A DNA stretch of 13,732 bases, taken from positions 1 to 13,732 of the forward strand of contig CAZYCQ010000072.1 in assembly GCA_964645535.1 (NCBI GenBank). Direction: 5' to 3'. The notes beneath the pieces were generated by a model. It was not told the origin of the DNA, ran no database searches, and was given only the letters and a program-made list of their open reading frames with translations. A program made the position numbers and the translations under genes. Positions 1 to 13,732 of the stretch are shown here, piece by piece (position 1 is the first letter of the stretch; each line of letters opens with the position of its first letter). This DNA is from an uncultured archaeon (GTDB lineage: Archaea > Asgardarchaeota > Heimdallarchaeia > Heimdallarchaeales > Kariarchaeaceae).

Positions 1-1086
1 CACCCCTCCTTTCCATCGACCTTGTTCCAAGTCGTAGTTTTCCGGATAGAAGAAGTACCGCATGGAAGTCGAGGGATCGATCACCATCTGGTCAAGGAAT
101 TGGGTCATGGGCAGGAAGATCTTGATGATTTGGTTGGCAATTCCCGAGGGACAGTAGACATACCAGAGGAATTCTCCATCGGCTGAATTGCAAGAGAACT
201 GGGATGCGAACGGGAAATTCTGTGAATGCAGGTACATCTGGAACTTTCTGAGTTCATTTCTGTCCATTGTTCCGGAGAAGGCAAAAATTGAATTGAGATT
301 GAAGAATTCCCTGTTGTAGATTATGGTTTCCTTTGTCAGGTATTTTTCACGTAGCTTGTTCAATCTCCGGGTGATGGTGGCAACATCTTTTTCATAGAGT
401 TTTGCCAGATCCGTTGCTTTGACCTTTGAGTTGATGGACAGCTCGCGTAGGAGGTACAGGTCAAGCCTGTCCCCATTGAACTGGGTTCGTGCATCATTCG
501 GTTCAGGTAGTTTTCCATTGGGTTTGTATTCTGTGTATGACCGTATGAAATCGAAGTTCCACTTGAATTCATCGAAGTTCCATTTGGTGAAATCGTCTTT
601 GGTTTCCAGACGTGTGGGGTGGTCGATTAGGACGGCCGAGTTGCACCATCCGTTGCCTTCAACAAGCTTGAGGAGTTCTTCAAGCCGTCCAGCTTCTTCT
701 GGAGGGACATCGAATTGGGCATAGACTGCTGGTGCTCCTGCTGTTCCTCTTGCTCTGAAATATGTGTAGGGATGATTGTCCAGCATCTTGATGATGCGGT
801 CATAGTTCTGGTATGTCTTGATTTCCCTAAACATTACCTGAACCCTTTTAAGACCAAGAAGACGCGGATCGGGATGACCTACTCTTTCGGAGACCTTTCT
901 CTCTCCAAGGATGGAGTCATTGATTGTCCTGTCCCTTCTCAACAGGTTTTCCTTTTTGAGGTGGTCGATCCATGCCCTGATGGTGTTGGGAGCGACGTCC
1001 ATCTGGTCAGCCAGCTGCTGAAGGGTTGCTCTGGGATTGTTTCTCAGGAGTACGACCAGTTGGAGATGTTTGATCCCAATTCCCAT
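1..1086 (-). CDS. Tandem (duplicated) Lrp/AsnC-type wHTH transcriptional regulator, 3'-partial (runs off window start)
   Basis: Manual translation from ATG at 1086 is open to position 1 (362 codons): MGIGIKHLQLVVLLRNNPRATLQQLADQMDVAPNTIRAWIDHLKKENLL (HTH 1)...DPRLLGL...HPYTYFR...; second HTH DRLDLYLLRELSINSKVKATDLAKLYEKDVATITRRLNKL; ends YFFYPENYDLEQGRWKGGV. Starts 9 nt after the stop of the 153-aa gene. Absent from the ORF track because the stop is outside the window. Confidence 0.88.
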   Translation of the reverse strand, partial: MGIGIKHLQLVVLLRNNPRATLQQLADQMDVAPNTIRAWIDHLKKENLLRRDRTINDSILGERKVSERVGHPDPRLLGLKRVQVMFREIKTYQNYDRIIKMLDNHPYTYFRARGTAGAPAVYAQFDVPPEEAGRLEELLKLVEGNGWCNSAVLIDHPTRLETKDDFTKWNFDEFKWNFDFIRSYTEYKPNGKLPEPNDARTQFNGDRLDLYLLRELSINSKVKATDLAKLYEKDVATITRRLNKLREKYLTKETIIYNREFFNLNSIFAFSGTMDRNELRKFQMYLHSQNFPFASQFSCNSADGEFLWYVYCPSGIANQIIKIFLPMTQFLDQMVIDPSTSMRYFFYPENYDLEQGRWKGGV

Positions 1087-1095
1087 ACAGGTACC

Positions 1096-1557
1096 TCAGT
1101 TGACCCTTACGCCAAATCCGGATGAATCTGAGTTGTCTCCTCCAGGTGGGTCAAAAATCATGTGATCGGAATCGGAGATATTGGGGTCTCCATTGAGGGT
1201 TGCATGAACCGAGGTGGAGTACCAACCCGATTCCGTTGCGGTATTGTAGAAGAAATTGGTTGCAGTGACTTGAGCCATGTTGGTGACGATAAGGACGTAT
1301 CCCACATAGGTTTTGCCCGAAGGCAGGGCGAGATCGACGGTGTAGGTGAGACCATTGAGAGTACCTCCGCCCTGTATTGCGAAGTGAATGATTACCACCA
1401 CATCATTGGGGACACCTCCACCATCCGCATCGGTGTAATATGCATCCATGATGGTGGCAGTGACTGAGCTTGCAGTGGCTGCATTCACGGAGTTTCCATG
1501 CGGAAGGAAGGTCAGTGCCATGATCGTAACTATCAGGACGAATTTCAGTTTTCGCAT
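1096..1557 (-). CDS. Secreted hypothetical protein, beta-rich, with a DxDGG putative Ca-binding loop
   Basis: Signal peptide MRKLKFVLIVTIMALTFLPHGNSVNA; YTDADGGGVPND loop; alternating beta-strand pattern; acidic tail FDPPGGDNSDSSG; TATA-like TTTTAAAT about 28 nt upstream. Confidence 0.8.
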   Translation of the reverse strand: MRKLKFVLIVTIMALTFLPHGNSVNAATASSVTATIMDAYYTDADGGGVPNDVVVIIHFAIQGGGTLNGLTYTVDLALPSGKTYVGYVLIVTNMAQVTATNFFYNTATESGWYSTSVHATLNGDPNISDSDHMIFDPPGGDNSDSSGFGVRVN

Positions 1558-1845: not shown

Positions 1846-2847
1846 ATGAATCACCGAAAACAATTTAGTCTGTTGGTGAGTTTTCTGATGCTCACCTCAT
1901 TTCTGCCGTTGATCGGAACAGGTGCTTCCGTTGCGGCGGATGCGCAAATCATGGCGGTTTCCGGTCCCGGAACTCCTCAGACAGTTCCTTGGGGCATTTC
2001 CCGGATCAATGCCCAACAGGCAGCTGCACAGGTTGATGAATCCAATGTCATTGTGGCGATCATTGACACTGGTTTGGACATGGATCATGAGGATCTGCAA
2101 GGCAGATTCCTTTGGGGATACAGCTGGTATGAACAGGGTGCCTTCAGTTTCTGGTTCTGGTTGCCCCGTATTGTAAGACAGGAATGCACTCAGGCAAATC
2201 CTGCTCCTTGCAATGATGATCATGGTCATGGTACCCACGTTGCAGGGATCATTGCAGGACAGGACAATTCCGTGGGTGTTGTGGGTGTTGCACCCGATGT
2301 AGGTCTGTATGTGTTCAAGGCATTGGCATCTGATGGATCCGGTTCCTATACTGCCATTTCTGAAGCGATCATCAAGGCTACCGAGGGTCCTGACGGTGTG
2401 GCGGGAACTGCCGATGATGCCGACGTCATTTCAATGTCCTTGGGCGGTTCATCAGGCAACAGCCAATTGCAGGATGCAGTCAACTTTGCTCTGAACAATG
2501 GTGTGGTTGTTGTTGCGGCAACCGGCAATGATGGTGCCTCTTCACCCAGCTATCCTGCTGCATATCCTGGTGTCATCAAGGTCGGTGCAGTCGACAGCAA
2601 TGACAACATTGCTTCATGGTCCAACAGGGGCGAGACAATTCTGGCACCGGGTGTCTCGATCCTGTCCACCATTCCTGGCAGCCAATATGACAGTTGGTCC
2701 GGAACTTCAATGGCAACGCCCCATGTTTCTGGAGTCGCGGCATTGGCTTGGGCGGCTCATCCCACGTATACCAATGATCAGATACGGGCATTGGTCGAGG
2801 GAAGCGCGGATAGCGCCGGTGTGGTCAATGCATTGGCTGTGATTTGA
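1846..2847 (+). CDS. Secreted S8 family (subtilisin-like) serine protease lacking an I9 propeptide
   Basis: Catalytic triad motifs IIDTG, HGTHVAG, GTSMATPHVSG; oxyanion AATGN; mature-type N-terminus QTVPWGISRI. Start placed at ATG 1846 (alternative 1840) because GGAG lies at 1835-1838 and a signal peptide follows directly. Confidence 0.95.
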   Translation: MNHRKQFSLLVSFLMLTSFLPLIGTGASVAADAQIMAVSGPGTPQTVPWGISRINAQQAAAQVDESNVIVAIIDTGLDMDHEDLQGRFLWGYSWYEQGAFSFWFWLPRIVRQECTQANPAPCNDDHGHGTHVAGIIAGQDNSVGVVGVAPDVGLYVFKALASDGSGSYTAISEAIIKATEGPDGVAGTADDADVISMSLGGSSGNSQLQDAVNFALNNGVVVVAATGNDGASSPSYPAAYPGVIKVGAVDSNDNIASWSNRGETILAPGVSILSTIPGSQYDSWSGTSMATPHVSGVAALAWAAHPTYTNDQIRALVEGSADSAGVVNALAVI

Positions 2848-2890
2848 GAGATTTTCAAAGTAATTGTCTACCAATCAACTGAATTATCAT

Positions 2891-3733
2891 TTAGGTATTA
2901 AGCATTGTAAGGAACATGGTAATCCTTTTTTCGAATTCTGGATGTGAAGAGATGTCAGAATGGCCTCGATTGTCCACAAGCCATAATTCGAGGATTCTTG
3001 TATCATTTTTCTTTTCTTGGGCTTGGATCTTTTGGAAATGACGTTCTACAGTGAACATGGTATCTTTTTCTCCATGAAGGATGAATGTGTTGGGTTTCAG
3101 GTTGGTCAGATCATATTTTTGTGGAAACTCACCTAGGTACCTGAGTCTGAAAATAAGTTCAGAGATACCGATTGTAAGGAAGAAGAAAATTGGTGGAATG
3201 CCTGCAAACCTGAGGAAGTCCGCAAATACTCCTGTAAGCTGTGCAGGGGCGGATTCAAGAACCAATGTATCGATGATGTCGGGATGCCGTGTTGCGAGAA
3301 TTGCGGCGGCAGTTGCCCCGAATGAAAGTCCATGCACAACTGGTTTTTCGATGCGTTCCTTCTTGATAAGTTGCAGAAGCCTCTCTGAATAGACCACTCC
3401 ATTTGGGAAAAAGGCGAATCCTGATTTTCCATGACCCGGTCCATCAAGGAAATAGAGGTCATAGCCAAGGTTCCAATAGGGGATGGCACGGCTTACCATT
3501 TGAGAACTGTTTTCGCTCCATCCATGGAGAAGAATGGCGGTTTTTCCATTGGGTTCGGCATTCCTTGCAATCCAGTATGCCCCTATTTTCTTGTCCGATT
3601 TCATGGTTGCATTGAATGGAATTTCATAGTCCTGTTTTCTCCAAAGCAGAACAACATTGTTGTTCAGCACGACAATGCCCAAGACACTTAGGGTCAGATA
3701 GGCTTCCAATAGGTACAGGCCAAGATTAATCAA
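2891..3733 (-). CDS. Membrane-anchored alpha/beta-fold hydrolase (serine aminopeptidase S33 / lipase-like)
   Basis: LLHGW oxyanion motif, DGPGHGKS, nucleophile elbow GLSFG, acid HGEKD, histidine RGHS; N-terminal hydrophobic anchor. Confidence 0.92.
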   Translation of the reverse strand: MINLGLYLLEAYLTLSVLGIVVLNNNVVLLWRKQDYEIPFNATMKSDKKIGAYWIARNAEPNGKTAILLHGWSENSSQMVSRAIPYWNLGYDLYFLDGPGHGKSGFAFFPNGVVYSERLLQLIKKERIEKPVVHGLSFGATAAAILATRHPDIIDTLVLESAPAQLTGVFADFLRFAGIPPIFFFLTIGISELIFRLRYLGEFPQKYDLTNLKPNTFILHGEKDTMFTVERHFQKIQAQEKKNDTRILELWLVDNRGHSDISSHPEFEKRITMFLTMLNT

Positions 3734-3833
3734 GGAGAATCACTTGTGGGGTTTTTGTATGGGTCTAAATATACTTTTGGCAAATTGCATGTTTACATCA
3801 ATTTTCAGGTATTGAAAACGGTAAAATCAGTCT

Positions 3834-4064
3834 ATGGATGATTTGAATGGCAATCTCGTAACAATGAACCCAATATTTCACCAAATTTTTTTATTCCTTG
3901 AAAACTCAACAGATAGCATGGTTTCTAGTATTTTGGTTTGGCTGGCCGTGATTGCCAGATTGGCGCTTTTGGGAATATCGATGATGATTAGGTGGAAATC
4001 AAGAGAAATTATGATTTCCAGGCGATCAATTACATTTTTCTTTTCATATTGTTTCTTTCATTGA
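3834..4064 (+). pseudogene. Probable N-terminal fragment (TM1) of the downstream membrane protein, separated by a frameshift near 3996-3998
   Basis: Encodes TM helix SSILVWLAVIARLALLGISMMIRWK; one extra A in TGG AAA TC fuses it to IKRNYDFQAINY of 3992..5002. True start could be 3834, 3864 or 3918. Confidence 0.55.
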
Positions 4065-5002: not shown

Positions 5003-5038
5003 ACTCGGTTCTGGATGTTGGAATTATTTAGTGGCATG

Positions 5039-5047
5039 TTTTTTTTG
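5039..5047 (+). terminator. Oligo-T tract, putative archaeal intrinsic terminator
   Basis: Run of T about 36 nt after the stop at 5002. Confidence 0.35.
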
Positions 5048-5052
5048 CAGTA

Positions 5053-5069
5053 TATTTGGAAACCAAATA
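5053..5069. promoter_or_regulatory. Perfect 7-3-7 palindrome, candidate operator
   Basis: TATTTGG-AAA-CCAAATA, about 20 nt upstream of TATA-like TTAATAA (5091-5097). Confidence 0.45.
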
Positions 5070-5117
5070 CGTTCACAGTTGCAACAATACTTAATAATCG
5101 TATTTTTTCTTTTGAGC

Positions 5118-5230
5118 TGTGGGGTGGTTGGCTCTCGTAACAGCAACCGCGGAACCTCTAAGGGAACCTTAAGTGGGAACCTTGTGGTCCTTGAGTTGCT
5201 GAACCCGGTTGGAGAGTGCACCACCCCACA
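5118..5230 (+). ncRNA. Putative structured RNA / 5' leader of unknown family
   Basis: TGTGGGGTGGT (5118-5128) pairs perfectly with ACCACCCCACA (5220-5230); CTCTC/GAGAG (5132-5136/5212-5216); CAGCAAC/GTTGCTG (5141-5147/5195-5201); three GGAACCT repeats inside. GC-rich island in AT-rich spacer with TATA-like box about 27 nt upstream. Confidence 0.55.
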
Positions 5231-5249
5231 TTTACATTTGTGAATCAGG

Positions 5250-6668
5250 ATGGAGAAACTGGAGATCATTATCCCCTTTGCAATCCCTTTAAATTTACGG
5301 AGAATGTTCTGGATCGGGATACGGTTGAATGGATTGAAAATAAACGGAACAAGATGGAGAAGCCAAGAAAACCGATTTCCACGAATGGCTCCATTCATGA
5401 GGAAGTATTTGGAAATAAATGAATTGACAGATCTTGTTCCGCCCATCCCATATGTGAACGATTCCAAACATGAAAGGAAGGGAAGAACTCCCAGCTCCCC
5501 TCCTTGCAGATCCAGCAACCTCTACCGTGTAATGGTAAGATCAAATGGAATTGGAACGATAGTTGTGGAAACCTTTATTGATTCCAGTAATGAGCACATT
5601 GACCTCAATGATCAGAAGAATGAATTGGTGAAAAAAGCCAGAGATTTTGCTCGATGCGTCCTGAAAGCAATTAAGTCATATTTTTCCTCTTCTTTCCAAC
5701 TAAACGATAATTTGCAATCTTCGATTGAATCAATTTCATTTGGAGAACCCTTTTGCCTGTATTTCAGCAATCTGTTCAATAATGGTGTTTCCTTTTCAAA
5801 GTTGAAGAAATTGGCGGCAGGAGCTTCACTGGAAACAAACAGGGCAGGCACTGACCAGTATTTTGTTTCTTCTTCTACACTTGGTGTCCTATTCAAGTCT
5901 GTCAGGAAGCCTCGAAATTATGTCATTCGTTCGAGGGAAGGAGTGGCTCTTGCCCTTGGAATCAAGTTCTATCTTGATACATATTTCCGGCAGAAGAATT
6001 ATTTGTATGCCTCGGACTTGGATTTCCTCTATCTTGTCCATTTCCTCAATCCGTACATAATGCTGAAACGGCAGAGTCCTGACGGTTTCCTTCCTTCATT
6101 GACCCGAATCTGGTTCAAACGAATCTCATTGAAATTTGCATTGCAAGAAAAATTCAGGAAACATCTTTCTCGTTTTACAACAGGTCATATTAAGTCAAAT
6201 TTGATCCAAATTCAATTGCTGTTTGCTTTGAAAACCCTAGGTCTCTCCTTTACGCCTCCCACCATCCAGAATCTTTCTCCATCCTTTGCCCCGTTGGAAC
6301 CAGAGGAAATTTCTGTGATGCTGGCAATCATCGAGCTTCAGAAAAATCAAGGAACCATCTTTCAGACACATATCTGGAAGTTGATCAAAAGCAAAAGCTT
6401 TCGTAAATTTCTTGTGCAATCCGAAGATATGTTTCACAGCCTGAAAAAGCTTGAGAAGGACAGGAAAAACAACCCTTGGGCATCTTGGGAAAATCTGGGA
6501 AAATTGCTGGACAAGCTTCATGACAAAAACCTGATCAAGAAAACTGAAGTATTTGGTCGTCCGGGACGTGGGAAAATCAAATATTCCTACAACCTGATTG
6601 ATCGCCACTGGAATTTTTCGGAGGAACTGGTTCACCTGATCAGGCTATTTTTTTCTGATGGTTCATAA
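5250..6668 (+). CDS. Hypothetical basic protein with C-terminal winged helix-turn-helix domain
   Basis: 472-aa ORF; C-terminus LEPEEISVMLAIIEL...IFQTHIWKLI...SWENLGKLLDKLHDKNLIKKTEVFGRPGRGKIKYSYNL fits a wHTH recognition helix plus wing; N-terminal ~340 aa not recognised. Confidence 0.75.
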   Translation: MEKLEIIIPFAIPLNLRRMFWIGIRLNGLKINGTRWRSQENRFPRMAPFMRKYLEINELTDLVPPIPYVNDSKHERKGRTPSSPPCRSSNLYRVMVRSNGIGTIVVETFIDSSNEHIDLNDQKNELVKKARDFARCVLKAIKSYFSSSFQLNDNLQSSIESISFGEPFCLYFSNLFNNGVSFSKLKKLAAGASLETNRAGTDQYFVSSSTLGVLFKSVRKPRNYVIRSREGVALALGIKFYLDTYFRQKNYLYASDLDFLYLVHFLNPYIMLKRQSPDGFLPSLTRIWFKRISLKFALQEKFRKHLSRFTTGHIKSNLIQIQLLFALKTLGLSFTPPTIQNLSPSFAPLEPEEISVMLAIIELQKNQGTIFQTHIWKLIKSKSFRKFLVQSEDMFHSLKKLEKDRKNNPWASWENLGKLLDKLHDKNLIKKTEVFGRPGRGKIKYSYNLIDRHWNFSEELVHLIRLFFSDGS

Positions 6669-6820
6669 ACCAATTTTCAGGAGTTTCTAGAGCTGTTTTT
6701 CATGGATAAGGGTAAAAAAATAAAGGCATCAGTCCTTCTTCTCTGCGAATTGCAAATCGATTCTTTGCTATTTCTTTGAAATAAATCACCATGGAATAAT
6801 TTATACTACATTAACATAGC

Positions 6821-6952
6821 ATGATTGCGATATTCCCAATCACAGCAATTCTTCCTGTGCTTCTGGCACAGCTGGCAGCTTTGACCATTGCCTTCTTGGG
6901 CGACGATGACCAAGGAGGACCTCCACAGACAGATCCCTACGGTGGGGGCTAA
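6821..6952 (+). CDS. Unannotated 43-aa peptide: hydrophobic N-terminal helix plus acidic Gly/Pro tail
   Basis: MIAIFPITAILPVLLAQLAALTIAFLGDDDQGGPPQTDPYGGG*; GC content rises at the ATG relative to the AT-rich spacer; TAATTTATA at 6797-6805; its TAA overlaps the TAG of the convergent 578-aa gene. Confidence 0.65.
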   Translation: MIAIFPITAILPVLLAQLAALTIAFLGDDDQGGPPQTDPYGGG

Positions 6953-8685
6953 GAAATAGATCTATTCAAGTATTGAGTCATTTGAATTGTTTTCCATCCA
7001 TTTTCTGTAGGGACAAGTTTTTCCGTTTTCGGTGAAAAAGGAACAATCAACGGATCAGTAATCAATTTTGCATTTCCATCAATTTTCCGTATCTCATTGA
7101 TTATGTCCCTTCTGTGATTGTTGGGTAAGAAAAGATTTGCGACTCCAATTTTCACTTTGGCTTTTCGTGGATTGTCAAGAATTTCTTTCGCCTCTTCTGC
7201 TGAAGTTTTGAATGGAATGGTACCTATGAGGTTAACAAGAGCCACAGGGACTCTTGAAGCAACATATTTGATGAATTGGTGATACTTGTGTGAGGTTCCG
7301 TCAATCAGTACCAGATAAGGAGACATTTCTTTGGGGGCGAAAACCCACCTTCTTTCAAGGATCTTGTTTACCTTCAGTTCCCGTTTCAGATTTGAAAGTG
7401 TTGCTGGTTTTACATCGTATTTTGCCCTGATTTCGGTATCCGGTTTCTTGGTGAATAAATCCAATACGATCTGTTTCTTTTTGATGTCCAGATTGATTGA
7501 TAAATCCTGTTGGACTGCAAATCCATCTGAAGCGGAAGGTTTTGTCAGACTCCATTCTCCGGTTTCCAGGTTCAGGCCTTCAACGGAAAGAAACTGTCTT
7601 CTTTTTTCCGGGATCTCCACGCCGAAAACAATTTCGGGATCCTTGGGATTCGAAGAAAACCATTTCTGGATTTTCATCCATTCAATGATATACTTCTTGG
7701 TTCCCGCATTCCGAGGAAGGAGAAACTTGGATTGCAGTACGGTTCCCCATCCCCTGAATTCAGTGAAACGATAAATAATTGGGAATTCCTTGATAATGTC
7801 CTTCCAAGAAACGATTGTTTTCTCATTGGATGATGAGACAATAAGGTTGAGGACAAAAAGCCCTAAAGGTTCAAAGTTGGCGTAGTTTCTTTCCTGAAGC
7901 AAATAAGACTTGATGAGCAGATTCAACCTTTTCTGAAAGGTTTTCTTGCTCATTCCCATCATCTCGGCAAGCTTTTGAAGTGACAGATCCTGATGGAGTA
8001 CTCGTAACTTTAGAACTTGCAGGAAATCCCTACTCAAGGCAGGATAGGAAATCATGCTGATATAGGGCAGTCGTTCCAGTTCCCAAGTTGAAAGGGTTTT
8101 TCCTTTTAGACTCAGAATTCTTTCGACATAGGTTTCCAAAATCAACCTCTGTTCAATGGCTTGGGTCAGTTGCTCCAAATAGGTGGGATAGTCATAGTAG
8201 ATGCCTGGATAATCCTTACTCTCTCTTACCGGCAATACATCTTTCCAGAATTTTCGGAGTTGGGTTCGTTTTCCTTTCAGGACTATCCAGAGTATTCCAA
8301 ATGTAAAATCCACAAAAGGTATTATGACATTTCCGCTTAAACAGCCTTCAACTTGATTGCAGACAATATAATAGACAAAAATGAAGGGAACAAATATGGT
8401 GTTCAGTATTTGATCCCTGAAAATATGGATTTCAACAACCAATTCAACATTGTCTTTCTTCTTTTTCAATGAAAACTCAAGGAAAACTTTTTTCAGGATC
8501 TGGGTTTCCTTTGATGCTCCTTTAATGGAAACAATTCCAATGGCTGGCATGCAATCACCAAAGGCGTCATTCCATTTTTCAATTGCTTCATTAAGGATTT
8601 CCTGCAATTCTTCCTTGCTTTTCGGTTGGCGCTGAAAAAGATCTACCACAAGGTGTTGAAAATGATCACCTTTGGAAATTTCCAT
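6949..8685 (-). CDS. Tandem Lrp/AsnC-type wHTH regulator with an extra ~210-aa N-terminal domain
   Basis: HTH LSRDFLQVLKLRVLHQDLSLQKLAEMMGMSKKTFQKRLNLL followed by NFEPLGL linker and FPIIYR; LNLETGEW motif; second degenerate HTH LDIKKKQIVLDLF...DTEIRAKYDVKPATLSNLKREL. Same architecture as the 1..1086 protein. Confidence 0.82.
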   Translation of the reverse strand: MEISKGDHFQHLVVDLFQRQPKSKEELQEILNEAIEKWNDAFGDCMPAIGIVSIKGASKETQILKKVFLEFSLKKKKDNVELVVEIHIFRDQILNTIFVPFIFVYYIVCNQVEGCLSGNVIIPFVDFTFGILWIVLKGKRTQLRKFWKDVLPVRESKDYPGIYYDYPTYLEQLTQAIEQRLILETYVERILSLKGKTLSTWELERLPYISMISYPALSRDFLQVLKLRVLHQDLSLQKLAEMMGMSKKTFQKRLNLLIKSYLLQERNYANFEPLGLFVLNLIVSSSNEKTIVSWKDIIKEFPIIYRFTEFRGWGTVLQSKFLLPRNAGTKKYIIEWMKIQKWFSSNPKDPEIVFGVEIPEKRRQFLSVEGLNLETGEWSLTKPSASDGFAVQQDLSINLDIKKKQIVLDLFTKKPDTEIRAKYDVKPATLSNLKRELKVNKILERRWVFAPKEMSPYLVLIDGTSHKYHQFIKYVASRVPVALVNLIGTIPFKTSAEEAKEILDNPRKAKVKIGVANLFLPNNHRRDIINEIRKIDGNAKLITDPLIVPFSPKTEKLVPTENGWKTIQMTQYLNRSIS

Positions 8686-8695
8686 ATATATGCAA

Positions 8696-8754
8696 AAGAA
8701 AAATGGGGTAATAAACTAATTGAGAATTCCCTATTTTTTCTACCCATTTTTCTT
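8696..8754. promoter_or_regulatory. 12-bp perfect inverted repeat bracketing the promoter of the 578-aa regulator
   Basis: AAGAAAAATGGG (8696-8707) / CCCATTTTTCTT (8743-8754), with a related copy CCCTATTTTTTC (8729-8740); minus-strand TTTATTA at 8709-8715. Confidence 0.5.
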
Positions 8755-8839
8755 GTGATTTTCATATTGTTGCTCTACGTGGTCTCTATATTTCAAATAG
8801 GTATCATAATGTTCAGAAATAGGTTGACCCCATGGTTTT

Positions 8840-8990
8840 ACTTCTATCCCGCCAATACTACAGTTGAGGTTGAATGACCTCAACCCACCACGCCATTGGC
8901 ATGTGTGGAATGTGACCTCAGGGGCAGAATAGGATTATCCTGTTCCCCCCGAACCTCCAATCGGTCGCAGAATGGGGGGTGGGGGGGAGT
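8840..8990 (+). ncRNA. Putative multi-hairpin structured RNA of unknown family (strand tentative)
   Basis: Hairpin GTTGAGGT/ACCTCAAC (8863-8870/8877-8884); hairpin CCAC..GCC-ATT-GGC..GTGG (8885-8908); stem TGTGACC/GGTCGCA (8911-8917/8963-8969) enclosing GGGG..GAATAGGA-TTA-TCCTGTTC-CCCC (8921-8949); 5' ACTTCT.ATCCC can pair with the 3' G-rich tail. Confidence 0.55.
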
Positions 8991-9093
8991 CCTCTTTACA
9001 ATCAGTTGGCAATATCATTCTGTATTTTTTTAAGTAAACTTTGTCGTTTGTTTTGCCGAAAAACGATTAAACCATGAACATGATAAGGAAATA

Positions 9094-10233: not shown

Positions 10234-11994
10234 TTGTATAGGAACGGTACTTTTCTTTTCCTGTCATTTTTCAGACGACAACCTCTTCGATTGGCTTTGT
10301 CCGTTTTTTTGATGGTTCTGTCAGCCGTGGCCTCGATGGTTCCTGCATTGCTTGTCGGAATGGCCATTGATTTTCTCGAGACCGATGGATTTGGAACAAA
10401 CTTCATCCTGACGGGACTTGGGGTTCTGCTTTCAGGTGTGATTTTTTACATCATTTCATTTGTGGGAATGTTTACCTTTGTGACTCTTTCGTTCAGTTTT
10501 GAAAGGGATATCCGGCAAGAATATTTTGATACCATTCAGTCACACAGTTTGACTTTTCATGACGAGCATAATTCTTCCCATCTTCTTTCAATGGGGATGA
10601 CAGAAATTTCGCAGATGCGGCAGGGCATTGTTCCTGCATTGCGTATGATCATGCAGAACTTTTTTTCGGTTCTGTTCATTTTGGGAAGTATATATTTCAT
10701 TGCAGGCATTCAAATGGTTTTGATTGCATTGGCGGGCTTCATTGTCTACTATATTCTGGCAGTGTATCAGGCGAGAAGAATAACGCCTGTGAGGATGAAG
10801 CTTGCAGACACCGCGGGTCAACTGACTGAACAGTCTCAGGAGATTTTCAGGGGGATTGACGTGGTTCGTTCATTCAAGGGAACGGTTAGGGAGATCCTCA
10901 GATTCAGAAAGGCAAGCAAGCAATATGCGGATTTGGGTGTCAAGGAAGGAAGAATGGCGGCATTCTATTGGCCTGATCTCATTCTTCTTATGCTGACTGC
11001 GGGATTGTTTGGAATGTCGGTCAGTCAGGTCACTCAGGGAACCATGAGTGTCGGGGAGCTGGTTCAGATAATGGGTCTGTTGCTGACCCTCCAATTGTCC
11101 TCAATGATGATGCCTCAGATGCTATTGTTCCTGAATGCGGCAATCACCAACGCCAACAGGGTGTGGGAGAAGATGAACTGGAAAGACCCTCAACCTGACA
11201 AGGTGATCGACAATCCACCTGAGGTGAATTGGAAAGGGGATCTGCGTTTTGAAAACGTGACCTTCTCCTATGTCAATGGCGGGCGTCCCGCCCTGAAAAA
11301 TATCAACATCACCATCCCCTCAAAATCTAAGGTTGCTTTGATTGGCGGTCCTGGAAGTGGAAAGTCCACTTTTCTGAAATTGCTTCTGAAATTGTATGTG
11401 CCACAGGAAGGGAGGATTACCATTGATGGGATCGATTATGAGGACATTCCGCACCAAGAGGTCAGAAAACATGTGAGCCGTGTAGAACAGGAGGTCTTTC
11501 TCTTCTCTGGAACCATCCGGGACAACATTGCCTTTGCCCGTCCTGATGCAACGGAAGAGGAAATCATCCGTGCTGCGGAGGCCGCTCAGGCAATGGAATT
11601 TATTTCCGAGCTTCCTGATGGATTGAATACCATGATCGGAGAACGTGGAGTCGATCTGTCAGGTGGACAAAGGCAAAGGCTAGCCATAGCCCGTGCCATA
11701 TTGGCTAATCCTGACATACTTCTTTTGGATGATAGTGCCTCTGCCTTGGACAGCAAGACTGAAGAACTTCTCCGGAAGGCATTGGACAACCTGAGCGCCA
11801 ATCGGTTGACGATTTCCGTGACACAACGATTGAACACACTGATCCGTGCAGATCTTGTGATTCTTCTGAAGAAAGGAGAAATTTTGGACGCAGGAACCCA
11901 CAAGGAACTTCTTTCCCGATGCAAGGAGTACCAGAAGATCTTTGAACTTCTGCCGGAATCCGAAAAGGTTATTGTACAGGGAGGTCTGAACTGA
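10234..11994 (+). CDS. Heterodimeric ABC exporter subunit (TMD+NBD) carrying the degenerate catalytic residues (TM287-like)
   Basis: Six-TM domain; Walker A GGPGSGKS; Q-loop VEQE; signature LSGGQ; Walker B LLLDD (Asp for catalytic Glu); switch TQR (Gln for His). TTG start; the frame is open upstream to an alternative CTG at 10204. Confidence 0.95.
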   Translation: MYRNGTFLFLSFFRRQPLRLALSVFLMVLSAVASMVPALLVGMAIDFLETDGFGTNFILTGLGVLLSGVIFYIISFVGMFTFVTLSFSFERDIRQEYFDTIQSHSLTFHDEHNSSHLLSMGMTEISQMRQGIVPALRMIMQNFFSVLFILGSIYFIAGIQMVLIALAGFIVYYILAVYQARRITPVRMKLADTAGQLTEQSQEIFRGIDVVRSFKGTVREILRFRKASKQYADLGVKEGRMAAFYWPDLILLMLTAGLFGMSVSQVTQGTMSVGELVQIMGLLLTLQLSSMMMPQMLLFLNAAITNANRVWEKMNWKDPQPDKVIDNPPEVNWKGDLRFENVTFSYVNGGRPALKNINITIPSKSKVALIGGPGSGKSTFLKLLLKLYVPQEGRITIDGIDYEDIPHQEVRKHVSRVEQEVFLFSGTIRDNIAFARPDATEEEIIRAAEAAQAMEFISELPDGLNTMIGERGVDLSGGQRQRLAIARAILANPDILLLDDSASALDSKTEELLRKALDNLSANRLTISVTQRLNTLIRADLVILLKKGEILDAGTHKELLSRCKEYQKIFELLPESEKVIVQGGLN

Positions 11995-13732
11995 TGTCAA
12001 GACATAGAGGTGCCATGTTTGCGGATCGAACCCGAACACGGAGTTCGAAAGTTTTACTTGGAATTCTTTGGAGATACCTTTCTCCCTTCAAACAGATCAT
12101 TTTCACGGTTGCCCTTTTGACCTTGGTTTATACGGCTGCGGTCACTTATCAACCGATTCTGGTTCAAAATGCCATTGATCAGCTTCTAGGAGGAAGTTCA
12201 TTTGATTCCCTTATCCTGCTTCTTGTGCTTTATGCCTCACTTTCCCTGTTTTCATGGTTGTCCAATTCCCTGATCACATGGTTGATGGCGAGAGTCCAGA
12301 ATGATCTTATCCATGTTCTTAGGTCAGATACTTTCGAAAAAATGGTTGAGGCAGACATGGCCTACCATGCGCAGGTTCAATCCGGCAATGTTACCTCACG
12401 AGTCATCAATGATACTCAGGAAATTACGGCGGGTTTGAGCGTATTCACCACAAGCCTTACCAATTTGCTGGTTGCATTTGCCACCCTTGGAGTCCTGTTC
12501 TCAATATCGATCTGGTTTGGGTTGATAGCCCTTTTGGCTCTTCCGACTGCGGGGATCATCACCAAGGTAATCTCAAGCAAGGGTAGGGAGAGGATGCTGA
12601 AAGTCAGATCTTCTATGGGACGTGTGAGTGGCAAATTGGCGGAAAATCTGGCTGGTGTGGCAATTGCGAAGTCATTCAATCAGGAAGAAAGAACTTCTGC
12701 CGAGATCAGAAAATTGAATGATGAGACCTTTGAATATTTTAAACAGTTGGGCGCAATGTTCACCATGATCTTCCCTTCCATTACCTTGGTCAGCATGGTC
12801 ATGATCTCAATGATACTCTTTGTCGGGGGTTATATGAACGAGATTGGACTGATGACCTCTGGAGCGATTTATCTAGGGACTGTAATGGTGAGACGTTTTC
12901 TCAGTCCCATTCTTGCTCTTTCAAACAATATCACAAATCTTCAGGCCTCCCTTGCAGCTCTTGACAGGGTAGTTGATGTCCTTCAAACCAAACCTGCCGT
13001 TACAAATGCACCAAATGCGGAACAGTTGATTGTCACTGACGGAGAAATTGAATTGAAAGGGGTCTGGTTCAAATACAAAATAAATGAAACCGCGCGAAAG
13101 AGTCGGAGAAGGGATGATGCTGTATTGGCACATTCCAATGGCAATGTTAACGAAAGCAGAGGAAGAGGTGAAGAATGGGTTCTCAAAAATGTCAGCTTTA
13201 AGATTCCCGGCAAGAAAAAAACTGCCTTGATTGGTCATACAGGTGCTGGAAAGACCACAGTCACAAAACTGGTTCTCCGGTTCTATGATCCCGATAAAGG
13301 TTCCATTGTGATTGACGGACAGGACATTCGGGGAGTTACTCTGGAATCACTCTACGATTCGATCAGCCTAGTGACTCAAGAACCATACCTATTTGCTGGA
13401 ACCATCTTGCAGAACATCAAATATGGAAAACCGGATGCATCTGATGAGGAAGTATTTGAACTTTGCAGGAGAATAGGGGCTGATGAATTCATCGAAGCCC
13501 TTCCTGATGGATATGATACCGAAATTTCCGAGTCAGGGAAATCATTGTCGGCAGGACAGCGCCAAATGATTACCATTGCCCGAACCATGTTACAAAATCC
13601 CAAAATCCTGATCTTGGATGAAGCAACAAGTCGTTTGGATGCCTATACTGAAAGTCTGGTTCAAGAAGCCCAAAACATGCTTTTTGAAGGGAGAACCACC
13701 CTTGTGATAGCCCATCGGTTATCCACAATTAG
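11994..13732 (+). CDS. Heterodimeric ABC exporter subunit (TMD+NBD) with consensus catalytic residues (TM288-like), 3'-partial
   Basis: ATG overlaps the upstream stop (TGATG); MSRHRGAMFADRTRTRSSKVLLGILWRYLSPF...; Walker A GHTGAGKTT; signature LSAGQ; Walker B LILDE; switch IAHR; runs off the window end, so absent from the ORF track. Confidence 0.95.
   Translation, partial: MSRHRGAMFADRTRTRSSKVLLGILWRYLSPFKQIIFTVALLTLVYTAAVTYQPILVQNAIDQLLGGSSFDSLILLLVLYASLSLFSWLSNSLITWLMARVQNDLIHVLRSDTFEKMVEADMAYHAQVQSGNVTSRVINDTQEITAGLSVFTTSLTNLLVAFATLGVLFSISIWFGLIALLALPTAGIITKVISSKGRERMLKVRSSMGRVSGKLAENLAGVAIAKSFNQEERTSAEIRKLNDETFEYFKQLGAMFTMIFPSITLVSMVMISMILFVGGYMNEIGLMTSGAIYLGTVMVRRFLSPILALSNNITNLQASLAALDRVVDVLQTKPAVTNAPNAEQLIVTDGEIELKGVWFKYKINETARKSRRRDDAVLAHSNGNVNESRGRGEEWVLKNVSFKIPGKKKTALIGHTGAGKTTVTKLVLRFYDPDKGSIVIDGQDIRGVTLESLYDSISLVTQEPYLFAGTILQNIKYGKPDASDEEVFELCRRIGADEFIEALPDGYDTEISESGKSLSAGQRQMITIARTMLQNPKILILDEATSRLDAYTESLVQEAQNMLFEGRTTLVIAHRLSTI

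Follow-up and report, generated by a model that had tools for sequence, protein, structure and literature searches.

Does a 43-codon open reading frame (ORF) lying tail-to-tail with the gene of a large regulator encode a real protein in an Asgard archaeon, and how does it relate to its neighbour? The question is raised by a stretch of 13,732 nucleotides (nt) from a 3.6-Mb Asgard metagenome-assembled genome (MAG), here called the window and corresponding to contig C72. The preliminary description of this DNA had pointed to a hidden ORF of 43 amino acids (aa) beside a 578-aa tandem-Lrp regulator, and had proposed the two as a candidate peptide signalling pair. Our comparisons of sequences and neighbourhoods identify an undescribed three-gene module made up of a small protein (P0001, the 43-aa peptide), a tandem-Lrp-fold protein (P0002, 578 aa) and a winged helix-turn-helix protein (P0003, 472 aa). 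Further, we give a probability of roughly 0.5 to the reading that the tail of the peptide is a gene-encoded effector of the adjacent tandem-Lrp-fold sensor. All statements on function made here are inferences from sequence and structural models. The features that carry the argument are as follows.

6821..6952, plus strand: gene of the small protein P0001, the type A member of a 16-member peptide family (translation, homologues, ratio of nonsynonymous to synonymous substitution rates, dN/dS)
6824..6898, plus strand: hydrophobic N-terminal segment of P0001, residues 2-26 (maximum of the Kyte-Doolittle mean over a 19-aa window 2.21; alignment)
6920..6949, plus strand: C-terminal motif PPQTDPYGGG of P0001, residues 34-43, the predicted regulator contact (alignment, pattern scans, complex model)
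6949..8685, minus strand: P0002, tandem-Lrp-fold protein and predicted receptor of the peptide tail (AlphaFold2 (AF2) model, fold matches, complex model)
5250..6668, plus strand: P0003, third conserved member of the module (neighbourhoods, fold search)

The small ORF begins with an ATG two codons downstream of an in-frame stop and encodes about 26 uncharged hydrophobic residues followed by an acidic, Gly/Pro-rich tail ending in PPQTDPYGGG, much as first described. The reported overlap of its stop with that of the 578-aa ORF is also correct, as the TAA of P0001 (6950-6952) and the TAG of P0002 have two bases in common within the CTAA at 6949-6952. The gene is hidden in the sense that it is absent from the ORF track of the window, but gene callers have annotated the ORF in four other assemblies.

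Looking for small ORFs beside homologues of the regulator, as the preliminary description had recommended, was productive, and 16 distinct homologous small ORFs were found in all. A search of the source genome with P0001 gave a second copy on contig C137 (locus L002), located tail-to-tail with a P0002 paralogue of 25% identity, and the congeneric genomes G001 and G002 have the same convergent arrangement as the window. A profile search of a collection of 5.8 billion proteins returned three more called peptides (P0038-P0040) besides that of G002 itself, and short metagenome contigs supplied further homologues. With the relaxed motif PPxxDP[WYLT][GP], we found a third module in the source genome (contig C115, L043), its orthologues in G001 (L077) and G002 (L076), one member each in genome G003 (L042) and on a Logan contig (L020), and three (L040, L041 and L044) in genus g9, which belongs to another family of the same order. 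All 14 aligned peptides have the PPxxDP core without variation, and the two found later carry it too.

Several lines of evidence address whether these ORFs are genes. Pairwise dN/dS, another check proposed earlier, is 0.17-0.40 among type A and 0.07-0.08 among type B sequences at synonymous divergences (dS) of 0.6-2.0 that are near saturation (Nei-Gojobori method), which points to purifying selection, and the codons of the motif differ synonymously at third positions. Across 83 genomes of the class, the back-translated motif pattern has four matches, each one of these ORFs, against none in the control; in the entire 3.6-Mb genome, exactly three reading frames close with the relaxed motif, and in the reversed control no frame does. 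No motif-bearing ORF was present in 23 loci (approximately 84 kb) around distant P0002 homologues, the DNA pattern of the type A motif had no match in the metagenome contigs of JGI, and no fused or longer form of the peptide gave a score, the last being weak evidence. The preliminary description had named a lack of conserved small ORFs beside homologous regulators and disrupted frames in relatives as signs against its reading; the opposite was found on both counts, with no frame-disrupting change seen in any copy of the peptide gene. The family has no match in Pfam, NCBIfam, PADLOC or PHROGs. Taken together, the sequence comparisons establish the small ORF as a real, conserved gene of Heimdall-type Asgard archaea under purifying selection.

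The earlier emphasis on the C-terminal part of the peptide was well placed, since the C-terminal motif is both the conserved and the type-specific element. The tail variants follow clades, with ...DPYGGG in type A, ...DPWG in type B, ...DP[LT]P in type C and ...DPWP[FL] in g9. The peptides of g9 are 19-22 aa long and have no hydrophobic segment, and the tail is thus the functional core of the family. In P0001-type peptides, the hydrophobic segment retains LP at positions 11-12 and a polar residue at 16-17 in the alignment, and residues 2-26 of P0001 are probably a membrane helix, to which no orientation is assigned. The absence of a basic n-region noted earlier holds for types A and B, without Lys or Arg; type C has Lys4 ahead of the helix in two of its three peptides and a very acidic C-flank, and the L020 peptide carries KRLK directly after the helix.

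The genes beside the peptide are as constant as its motif. In every module with readable flanks, homologues of both P0002 and P0003 adjoin the peptide gene, except at L023/L024, which are without P0002. The linkage of the peptide to a tandem-Lrp protein therefore stands, but the pair proposed earlier is in fact a trio, with a P0003 homologue always adjacent. Five gene orders occur: a P0003-like gene followed by a peptide gene convergent with the regulator (the window, L002, L004, L022 and L025/L026), an operon-like run of regulator, P0003-like gene and peptide on the same strand (L043, L076 and L077), and three further permutations (L020; L040/L044; L041/L042). Stop codons overlap or lie at most 4 nt apart in the window and in L002, L003, L004 and L022. 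Maximum-likelihood phylogenies built for the regulators and for the P0003-like proteins agree on clades A, B, C and g9, with A grouping with B; since the tail variants of the peptides sort by clade as well, the module has been duplicated and inherited as a unit. The source genome alone has three paralogous modules (contigs C72, C137 and C115), each with its own tail variant. Around P0008, P0009, P0010 and P0012 and in 23 phylum-wide regulator loci, neither a motif-bearing ORF nor a P0003-like neighbour was present within the available flanks.

What kind of protein is the predicted receptor? Its parts are the following.

8041..8685, minus strand: N-terminal domain of P0002, approximately residues 1-215, without recognised fold and of low model confidence (AF2 model, complex model)
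7651..8031, minus strand: first helix-turn-helix (HTH) and RAM-like module, residues 219-345, including the near-invariant R266 (secondary structure, weak Lrp matches, fold, contacts, conservation)
7051..7488, minus strand: second HTH and RAM-like module, residues 400-545, including the residues of the Tyr40 pocket (AF2 model, fold, contacts)

The AF2 model of P0002 has a mean predicted local distance difference test (pLDDT) score of 66, being poor for residues 1-220 and good for the rest, and the HTH-RAM order of elements occurs twice in it, at residues 219-345 and 400-545. Among known structures, the fused sirohaem decarboxylase NirDL (4ch7; Foldseek E 2.8e-6) matches best and aligns with residues 219-578 of the model at Z 12.3 and a root-mean-square deviation of 6.9 over 287 of 309 residues; single Lrp/AsnC chains come next in the Foldseek list, and sequence identity in the structural alignments is 10-12%. 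A profile search against PDB sequences gave weak Lrp matches at residues 222-304 and 403-465 (E 0.03-0.9). In Pfam, the sole match is HTH_WhiA at 21 bits, under its cutoff of 27, and no match to HTH_AsnC-type or AsnC_trans_reg reaches the gathering score, while HTH_AsnC-type is matched in two of five family members (best E 0.033). Across Pfam, NCBIfam, PADLOC and PHROGs, P0002 gives only sub-threshold HTH or CARF-like fragments, and no TPR family appeared in the Pfam scans of P0002 and its family members. The label of a tandem-Lrp protein with an unexplained N-terminal domain, given in the preliminary description, is thus right at the level of fold because of the NirDL and Lrp/AsnC matches, but not at Pfam gathering scores; the domain of some 215 residues in front of the modules is indeed without recognised fold.

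The family is small, with 33 matches at E <= 1e-3 among 1.84 billion representatives, weaker partial matches in 67 of 400 Asgard genomes, and, with P0002 alone as query, no match in viral, metagenome or genome contigs; paralogous regulators are 22-25% identical. A role of P0002 as a sirohaem decarboxylase was considered and rejected, as the HXYXR (H.Y.R) motif is absent in 19 of 19 family members and there is no haem-pathway context. As a separate observation, the N-terminal domain of type A regulators contains two strongly hydrophobic stretches (8275-8410 of the window, approximately residues 93-137 of P0002, at low model confidence), and about 20 residues of these stretches are deleted in type B regulators.

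The third protein, P0003, was modelled at pLDDT 80 and has a C-terminal winged helix at residues 345-455 that matches the winged-helix domains of YceH, Fur and Orc1 at Z 8-9. Against the PDB, Foldseek found nothing at E <= 0.001, and in the wider structure comparison only the C-terminal winged helix was matched, with no fold match for the N-terminal and middle parts. Scores against the protein atlas were at most 0.82, and P0003 belongs to no family in Pfam, NCBIfam, PADLOC or PHROGs.

Does the tail meet the regulator? A complex prediction of the tail with the adjacent regulator had been recommended, and we ran one with three chains, namely P0002, residues 139-472 of P0003 and the peptide as scored partner, each chain with an alignment of its own. 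The tail was placed between the RAM-like domains of P0002, in the cleft separating the two, and the interface score ipSAE (interaction prediction score from aligned errors) was 0.42, 0.71 and 0.63 over three runs (median 0.63), with the best of three controls at 0.00. Of 80 solved complexes, 58 attain the mark for the median ipSAE, as do 2 of 110 mismatched pairs; these counts are only roughly applicable here because the alignments were self-supplied and three chains were used. At least 33% of contacts agreed among the three runs, and the pLDDT of the partner was at least 38.

The confident contacts involve peptide residues 30-43 on one side and, on the other, residues 261-269 and 305-308 of the first RAM-like sheet of P0002, residues 448-451, 481-483 and 517-519 of the second, residues 547-552, and residues 161-169 and 204-211 of the N-terminal domain, part of which closes over the peptide site in the model. 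The invariant Asp38 of the peptide lies beside the near-invariant Arg266 of P0002, and Tyr40 is placed in a pocket of V448, V481, L483, N517 and F519. Within the close family, residues 266, 448 and 451 do not vary. Only regulators of the Tyr type (A) have Asn517, with F, I, Y or Q at this position in the Trp and Leu types; the correspondence is no more than suggestive, because it reflects a single phylogenetic event. In AhbA/B, which have the same fold, the ligand site is a cavity between two RAM-like domains (PMC4145669), and in Lrp proteins the effector pocket sits within the RAM domain (PMC2995911); the predicted peptide site would match the position of the AhbA/B cavity. The control in which P0002 was replaced and P0003 (residues 139-472) kept scored 0.00, which is neither support for nor evidence against binding of the peptide to P0003.

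In the reading that we prefer, tail residues 30-43 are predicted to bind the RAM-RAM cleft of P0002, where the tail would replace the amino-acid ligands of ordinary Lrp proteins as a gene-encoded effector, and its binding would alter the DNA binding of the regulator or its location. In the genus of the source genome (g1), the hydrophobic N-terminal helix would most likely serve as a membrane anchor, and binding would tether or sequester the regulator; less likely, the helix would pack on a partner protein. In genus g9, the same tail would be produced as a free peptide of 19-22 aa. Because the tail occurs there without a hydrophobic segment, the anchor would be a lineage-specific addition and binding would most simply be intracellular. 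A tail acting as gene-encoded effector is the simplest reading because it covers all 16 members.

Several points weigh against this reading. The complex score is the model's own confidence, and both the uncertain fold of the partner (pLDDT 38-48) and the modest agreement between runs temper it. R266 is conserved also in distant homologues without an adjacent peptide, and may be structural rather than ligand-binding. Loci L023/L024 (6402-8997) repeat the gene order of the window, namely S8 subtilase, hydrolase, P0003-like gene, peptide, 210-aa gene and ABC pair, and keep an intact 42-aa peptide gene without a P0002 homologue, with the P0003-like gene split by a frameshift into 360 and 111 aa; since the peptide is intact there without P0002, it may not strictly depend on the regulator, or the locus may be decaying. 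DNA binding by P0002 is suggested solely by HTH-like matches below Pfam thresholds. Finally, topology cues conflict, as Lys4 and the acidic C-flank of type C fit a tail-out orientation and KRLK of L020 fits tail-in.

The topology cues also bear on the strongest alternative, an exported signalling peptide, in which the hydrophobic segment would drive export, the C-terminal 8-17 residues would be released, re-imported and bound by the tandem-Lrp receptor, and the three paralogous modules would represent separate "pherotypes". We regard this as unlikely, though it has points in its favour: a small ORF adjoining its predicted receptor, a conserved and type-specific C-terminal motif, three cognate sets in one genome, a tail predicted to dock on the receptor, a very acidic tail and a type C Lys4 before the helix that fit translocation of the C-terminus, and, for type A, the synteny between the window and L023 of a secreted subtilase (S8) and a pair of ABC exporter genes. 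Types A and B have neither a basic n-region nor an AxA-like cleavage site, L020 has KRLK after the helix, and the g9 peptides have no hydrophobic segment to drive export. Neither the S8 nor the ABC genes occur in the neighbourhoods of types B and C, the ABC proteins (10234-11994 and 11994-13730) are without a C39 peptidase domain, with ABC_membrane beginning at residues 21 and 38, and no oligopeptide importer, nor any importer or exporter conserved with the module, was seen in the module neighbourhoods. The pheromone precursor of the preliminary description keeps its adjacency, conserved tail and predicted docking, but has no n-region or cleavage site in types A and B and no transporters conserved in the module neighbourhoods. 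A double-glycine leader processed by a C39-ABC exporter was also considered and rejected, given the missing peptidase domain and the absence of ABC genes from type B and C modules. That several orthogonal sets of peptide and Lrp/RAM sensor per genome serve cell-to-cell communication in Heimdall-type Asgard archaea, which would be the first such case in archaea and independent of the TPR-based RRNPP systems, appears more doubtful still.

The enzyme identity of the best fold match, NirDL, raises a different and comparably improbable alternative, namely that the module forms a non-transcriptional complex of mobile-element, defence or enzyme-like nature. The Lrp-like fold would then be a binding scaffold, as in AhbA/B-NirDL, and the small protein a structural or membrane-anchoring subunit, or a precursor substrate of the kind known for ribosomally synthesised and post-translationally modified peptides, rather than a regulatory effector. 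Such a role would suit a module that is patchy, multi-copy and fast-diverging (paralogues of 22-25% identity), that sits in a part of the window (3.5-10.5 kb) with G+C below that of the flanks and in some relatives near CRISPR-Cas genes, and whose P0003 has N-terminal and middle parts without known fold. It sits less well with the HXYXR catalytic motif being found in 0 of 19 family members, with the lack of haem-pathway genes nearby, with the absence of any substantial match in PADLOC, PHROGs or NCBIfam and of relatives in viral contigs, or with the DNA-binding features of the proteins themselves, as HTH-type matches recur in several P0002 members and P0003 ends in a winged helix of DNA-binding type.

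Very improbable is a cis-acting translational arrest peptide, whose Pro-rich C-terminus (PP, DP and [WYL][GP] before the stop) would stall the ribosome and control neighbouring transcripts, in the convergent arrangement including the overlapping 3' end of the regulator mRNA: the concentration of conservation in the last 8-10 codons, with Pro and Asp-Pro near the stop, and the overlapping or closely spaced stops (<=4 nt) of the window, L002, L003, L004 and L022 would fit, but the peptide gene occupies five positions or orientations relative to the other genes, so that no downstream gene is consistently available for cis control, the residues at the very end differ among members (GGG, G, P, PF, PL, PA), each type conserves its hydrophobic segment although an arrest peptide would not need it, and the predicted docking already explains the motif.

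How does the module, with the peptide tail read as an effector, compare with known systems? The obvious counterparts are the RRNPP and arbitrium pairs of Firmicutes and their phages, such as Rap/Phr, PlcR/PapR, Rgg/SHP and AimR/AimP (PMC9232636, PMC12700828). As in these, a short ORF lies beside the gene of a cytoplasmic HTH-containing receptor, conservation and type specificity reside at the C-terminal end of its product, genomes carry several paralogous cognate sets, and the peptide is predicted to bind the sensor part of the receptor. The analogy drawn in the preliminary description fails on the receptor side, where the fold is a tandem HTH+RAM (Lrp-like) arrangement and not TPR. Further differences are the Asgard archaeal host, the lack of a usual secretion signal, processing site or Opp-type importer here, the forms without a hydrophobic segment, and a third conserved, P0003-like protein in the unit.

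P0002 is like the Lrp/AsnC proteins in that the predicted effector site lies in the RAM part (PMC2995911). Unlike them, it carries two modules on a single chain, preceded by an additional domain of about 215 aa, has diverged too far in sequence for Pfam thresholds, and is predicted to have as effector the tail of a protein encoded next to it instead of a free amino acid or metabolite. With AhbA/B-NirDL (4ch7; PMC4145669) it shares the tandem of two HTH+RAM-like halves and a ligand cavity between the RAM-like sheets, but it is without the conserved HXYXR motif that faces the cavity in AhbA/B (PMC4145669), is without alternative-haem or haem d1 context, and has the additional N-terminal domain.

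Small membrane modulators and membrane sequestration of regulators are known in bacteria, for example MgrB-PhoQ, Mlc-PtsG and single-pass anti-sigma factors. In MgrB-type cases a very small single-helix protein is encoded together with a regulator and acts directly on it, as we propose here, but these systems act on sensor kinases or sigma factors, and none is known in which a linear C-terminal motif has been proposed to fill an Lrp-type effector cleft. Searches of the literature on archaeal RRNPP-like systems and on small-protein partners of Lrp regulators gave nothing relevant, and the peptide, P0002 and P0003 families, as well as peptide effectors of Lrp proteins, are undescribed in Pfam, NCBIfam, PADLOC, PHROGs and the literature searched. 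The principle may thus be that of known peptide-receptor pairs, but with a different receptor fold, a third partner and a host from another domain of life.

Lrp-type regulators rank among the most common transcription factors of archaea. If the tail indeed acts as their effector in this module, a protein or peptide ligand would be a new class of input, as the known effectors are amino acids and small metabolites (PMC2995911), and an undescribed three-gene module would be added to the archaeal lineage closest to eukaryotes. If exported, the peptide would be a candidate for archaeal peptide signalling; if not, it would add a new case in which a very small protein controls a regulator, in a domain of life with few assigned small-protein functions. 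The proposal lends itself to experiment, as the tail is short enough for a synthetic peptide, the predicted contacts name residues, and the three paralogous sets provide built-in controls for specificity.

Does the peptide gene have a promoter of its own? Two boxes lie upstream of it.

6800..6805, plus strand: TTTATA, 16-21 nt before the P0001 ATG, not conserved at other loci
6778..6786, plus strand: A-rich box GAAATAAAT resembling a promoter element, 35-43 nt before the ATG

The TATA-like box reported earlier is present as TTTATA, but at 16-21 nt it is too near the ATG to suit as a standard archaeal TATA box for the start of P0001. Instead, the A-rich box keeps its position in type A and B loci as a AAAGAAAT-like sequence (10 upstream regions compared). 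In addition, a TTTGAAATA-like box occurs both in the promoter region of the peptide gene (6766-6783) and upstream of P0002 (8789-8806), in the same orientation relative to the gene, and an imperfect inverted repeat of 26 nt (8693-8757) lies immediately upstream of the P0002 start. Found as weak candidates only in a repeat search for a shared operator over 5003-9093, the two may be promoter or operator elements.

The surroundings of the module offer some further observations. Between 3500 and 10500 of the window, G+C is 0.35-0.43 compared with 0.44-0.51 in the flanks, and this part, with the module and its neighbours, may form an island of distinct composition. A non-coding segment at 8878-8987 (within 8840-8990) is 85.6% identical over 111 nt to positions 8421-8531 of L023; the neighbouring proteins of the window and L023 are 34-70% identical at the amino-acid level, far below this segment. 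Neither Rfam nor a tRNA search matched it, it occurs only once in the genome, and it is probably a conserved structured RNA or regulatory site; Rfam and ARAGORN searches of the whole window found nothing. CRISPR-Cas genes are located at 1-3795 of L012 and 1-1033 of L023 (Cas5/Cas7/Cas8-like/Cas6; Cmr2/RAMP), within a few kb of a distant regulator homologue (L012) and of a type A module in another organism (L023). At the beginning of the window, a second tandem-HTH regulator (1-1086, minus strand; MarR/HTH_24 at residues 8-57 and HTH_AsnC-type at 206-246) lies directly downstream of the gene for a secreted protein of 153 aa (1096-1557, minus strand) with a classical signal peptide and FDPPGG in its tail, and this pair is kept in L023 at 2308-3438 and 3448-3948.

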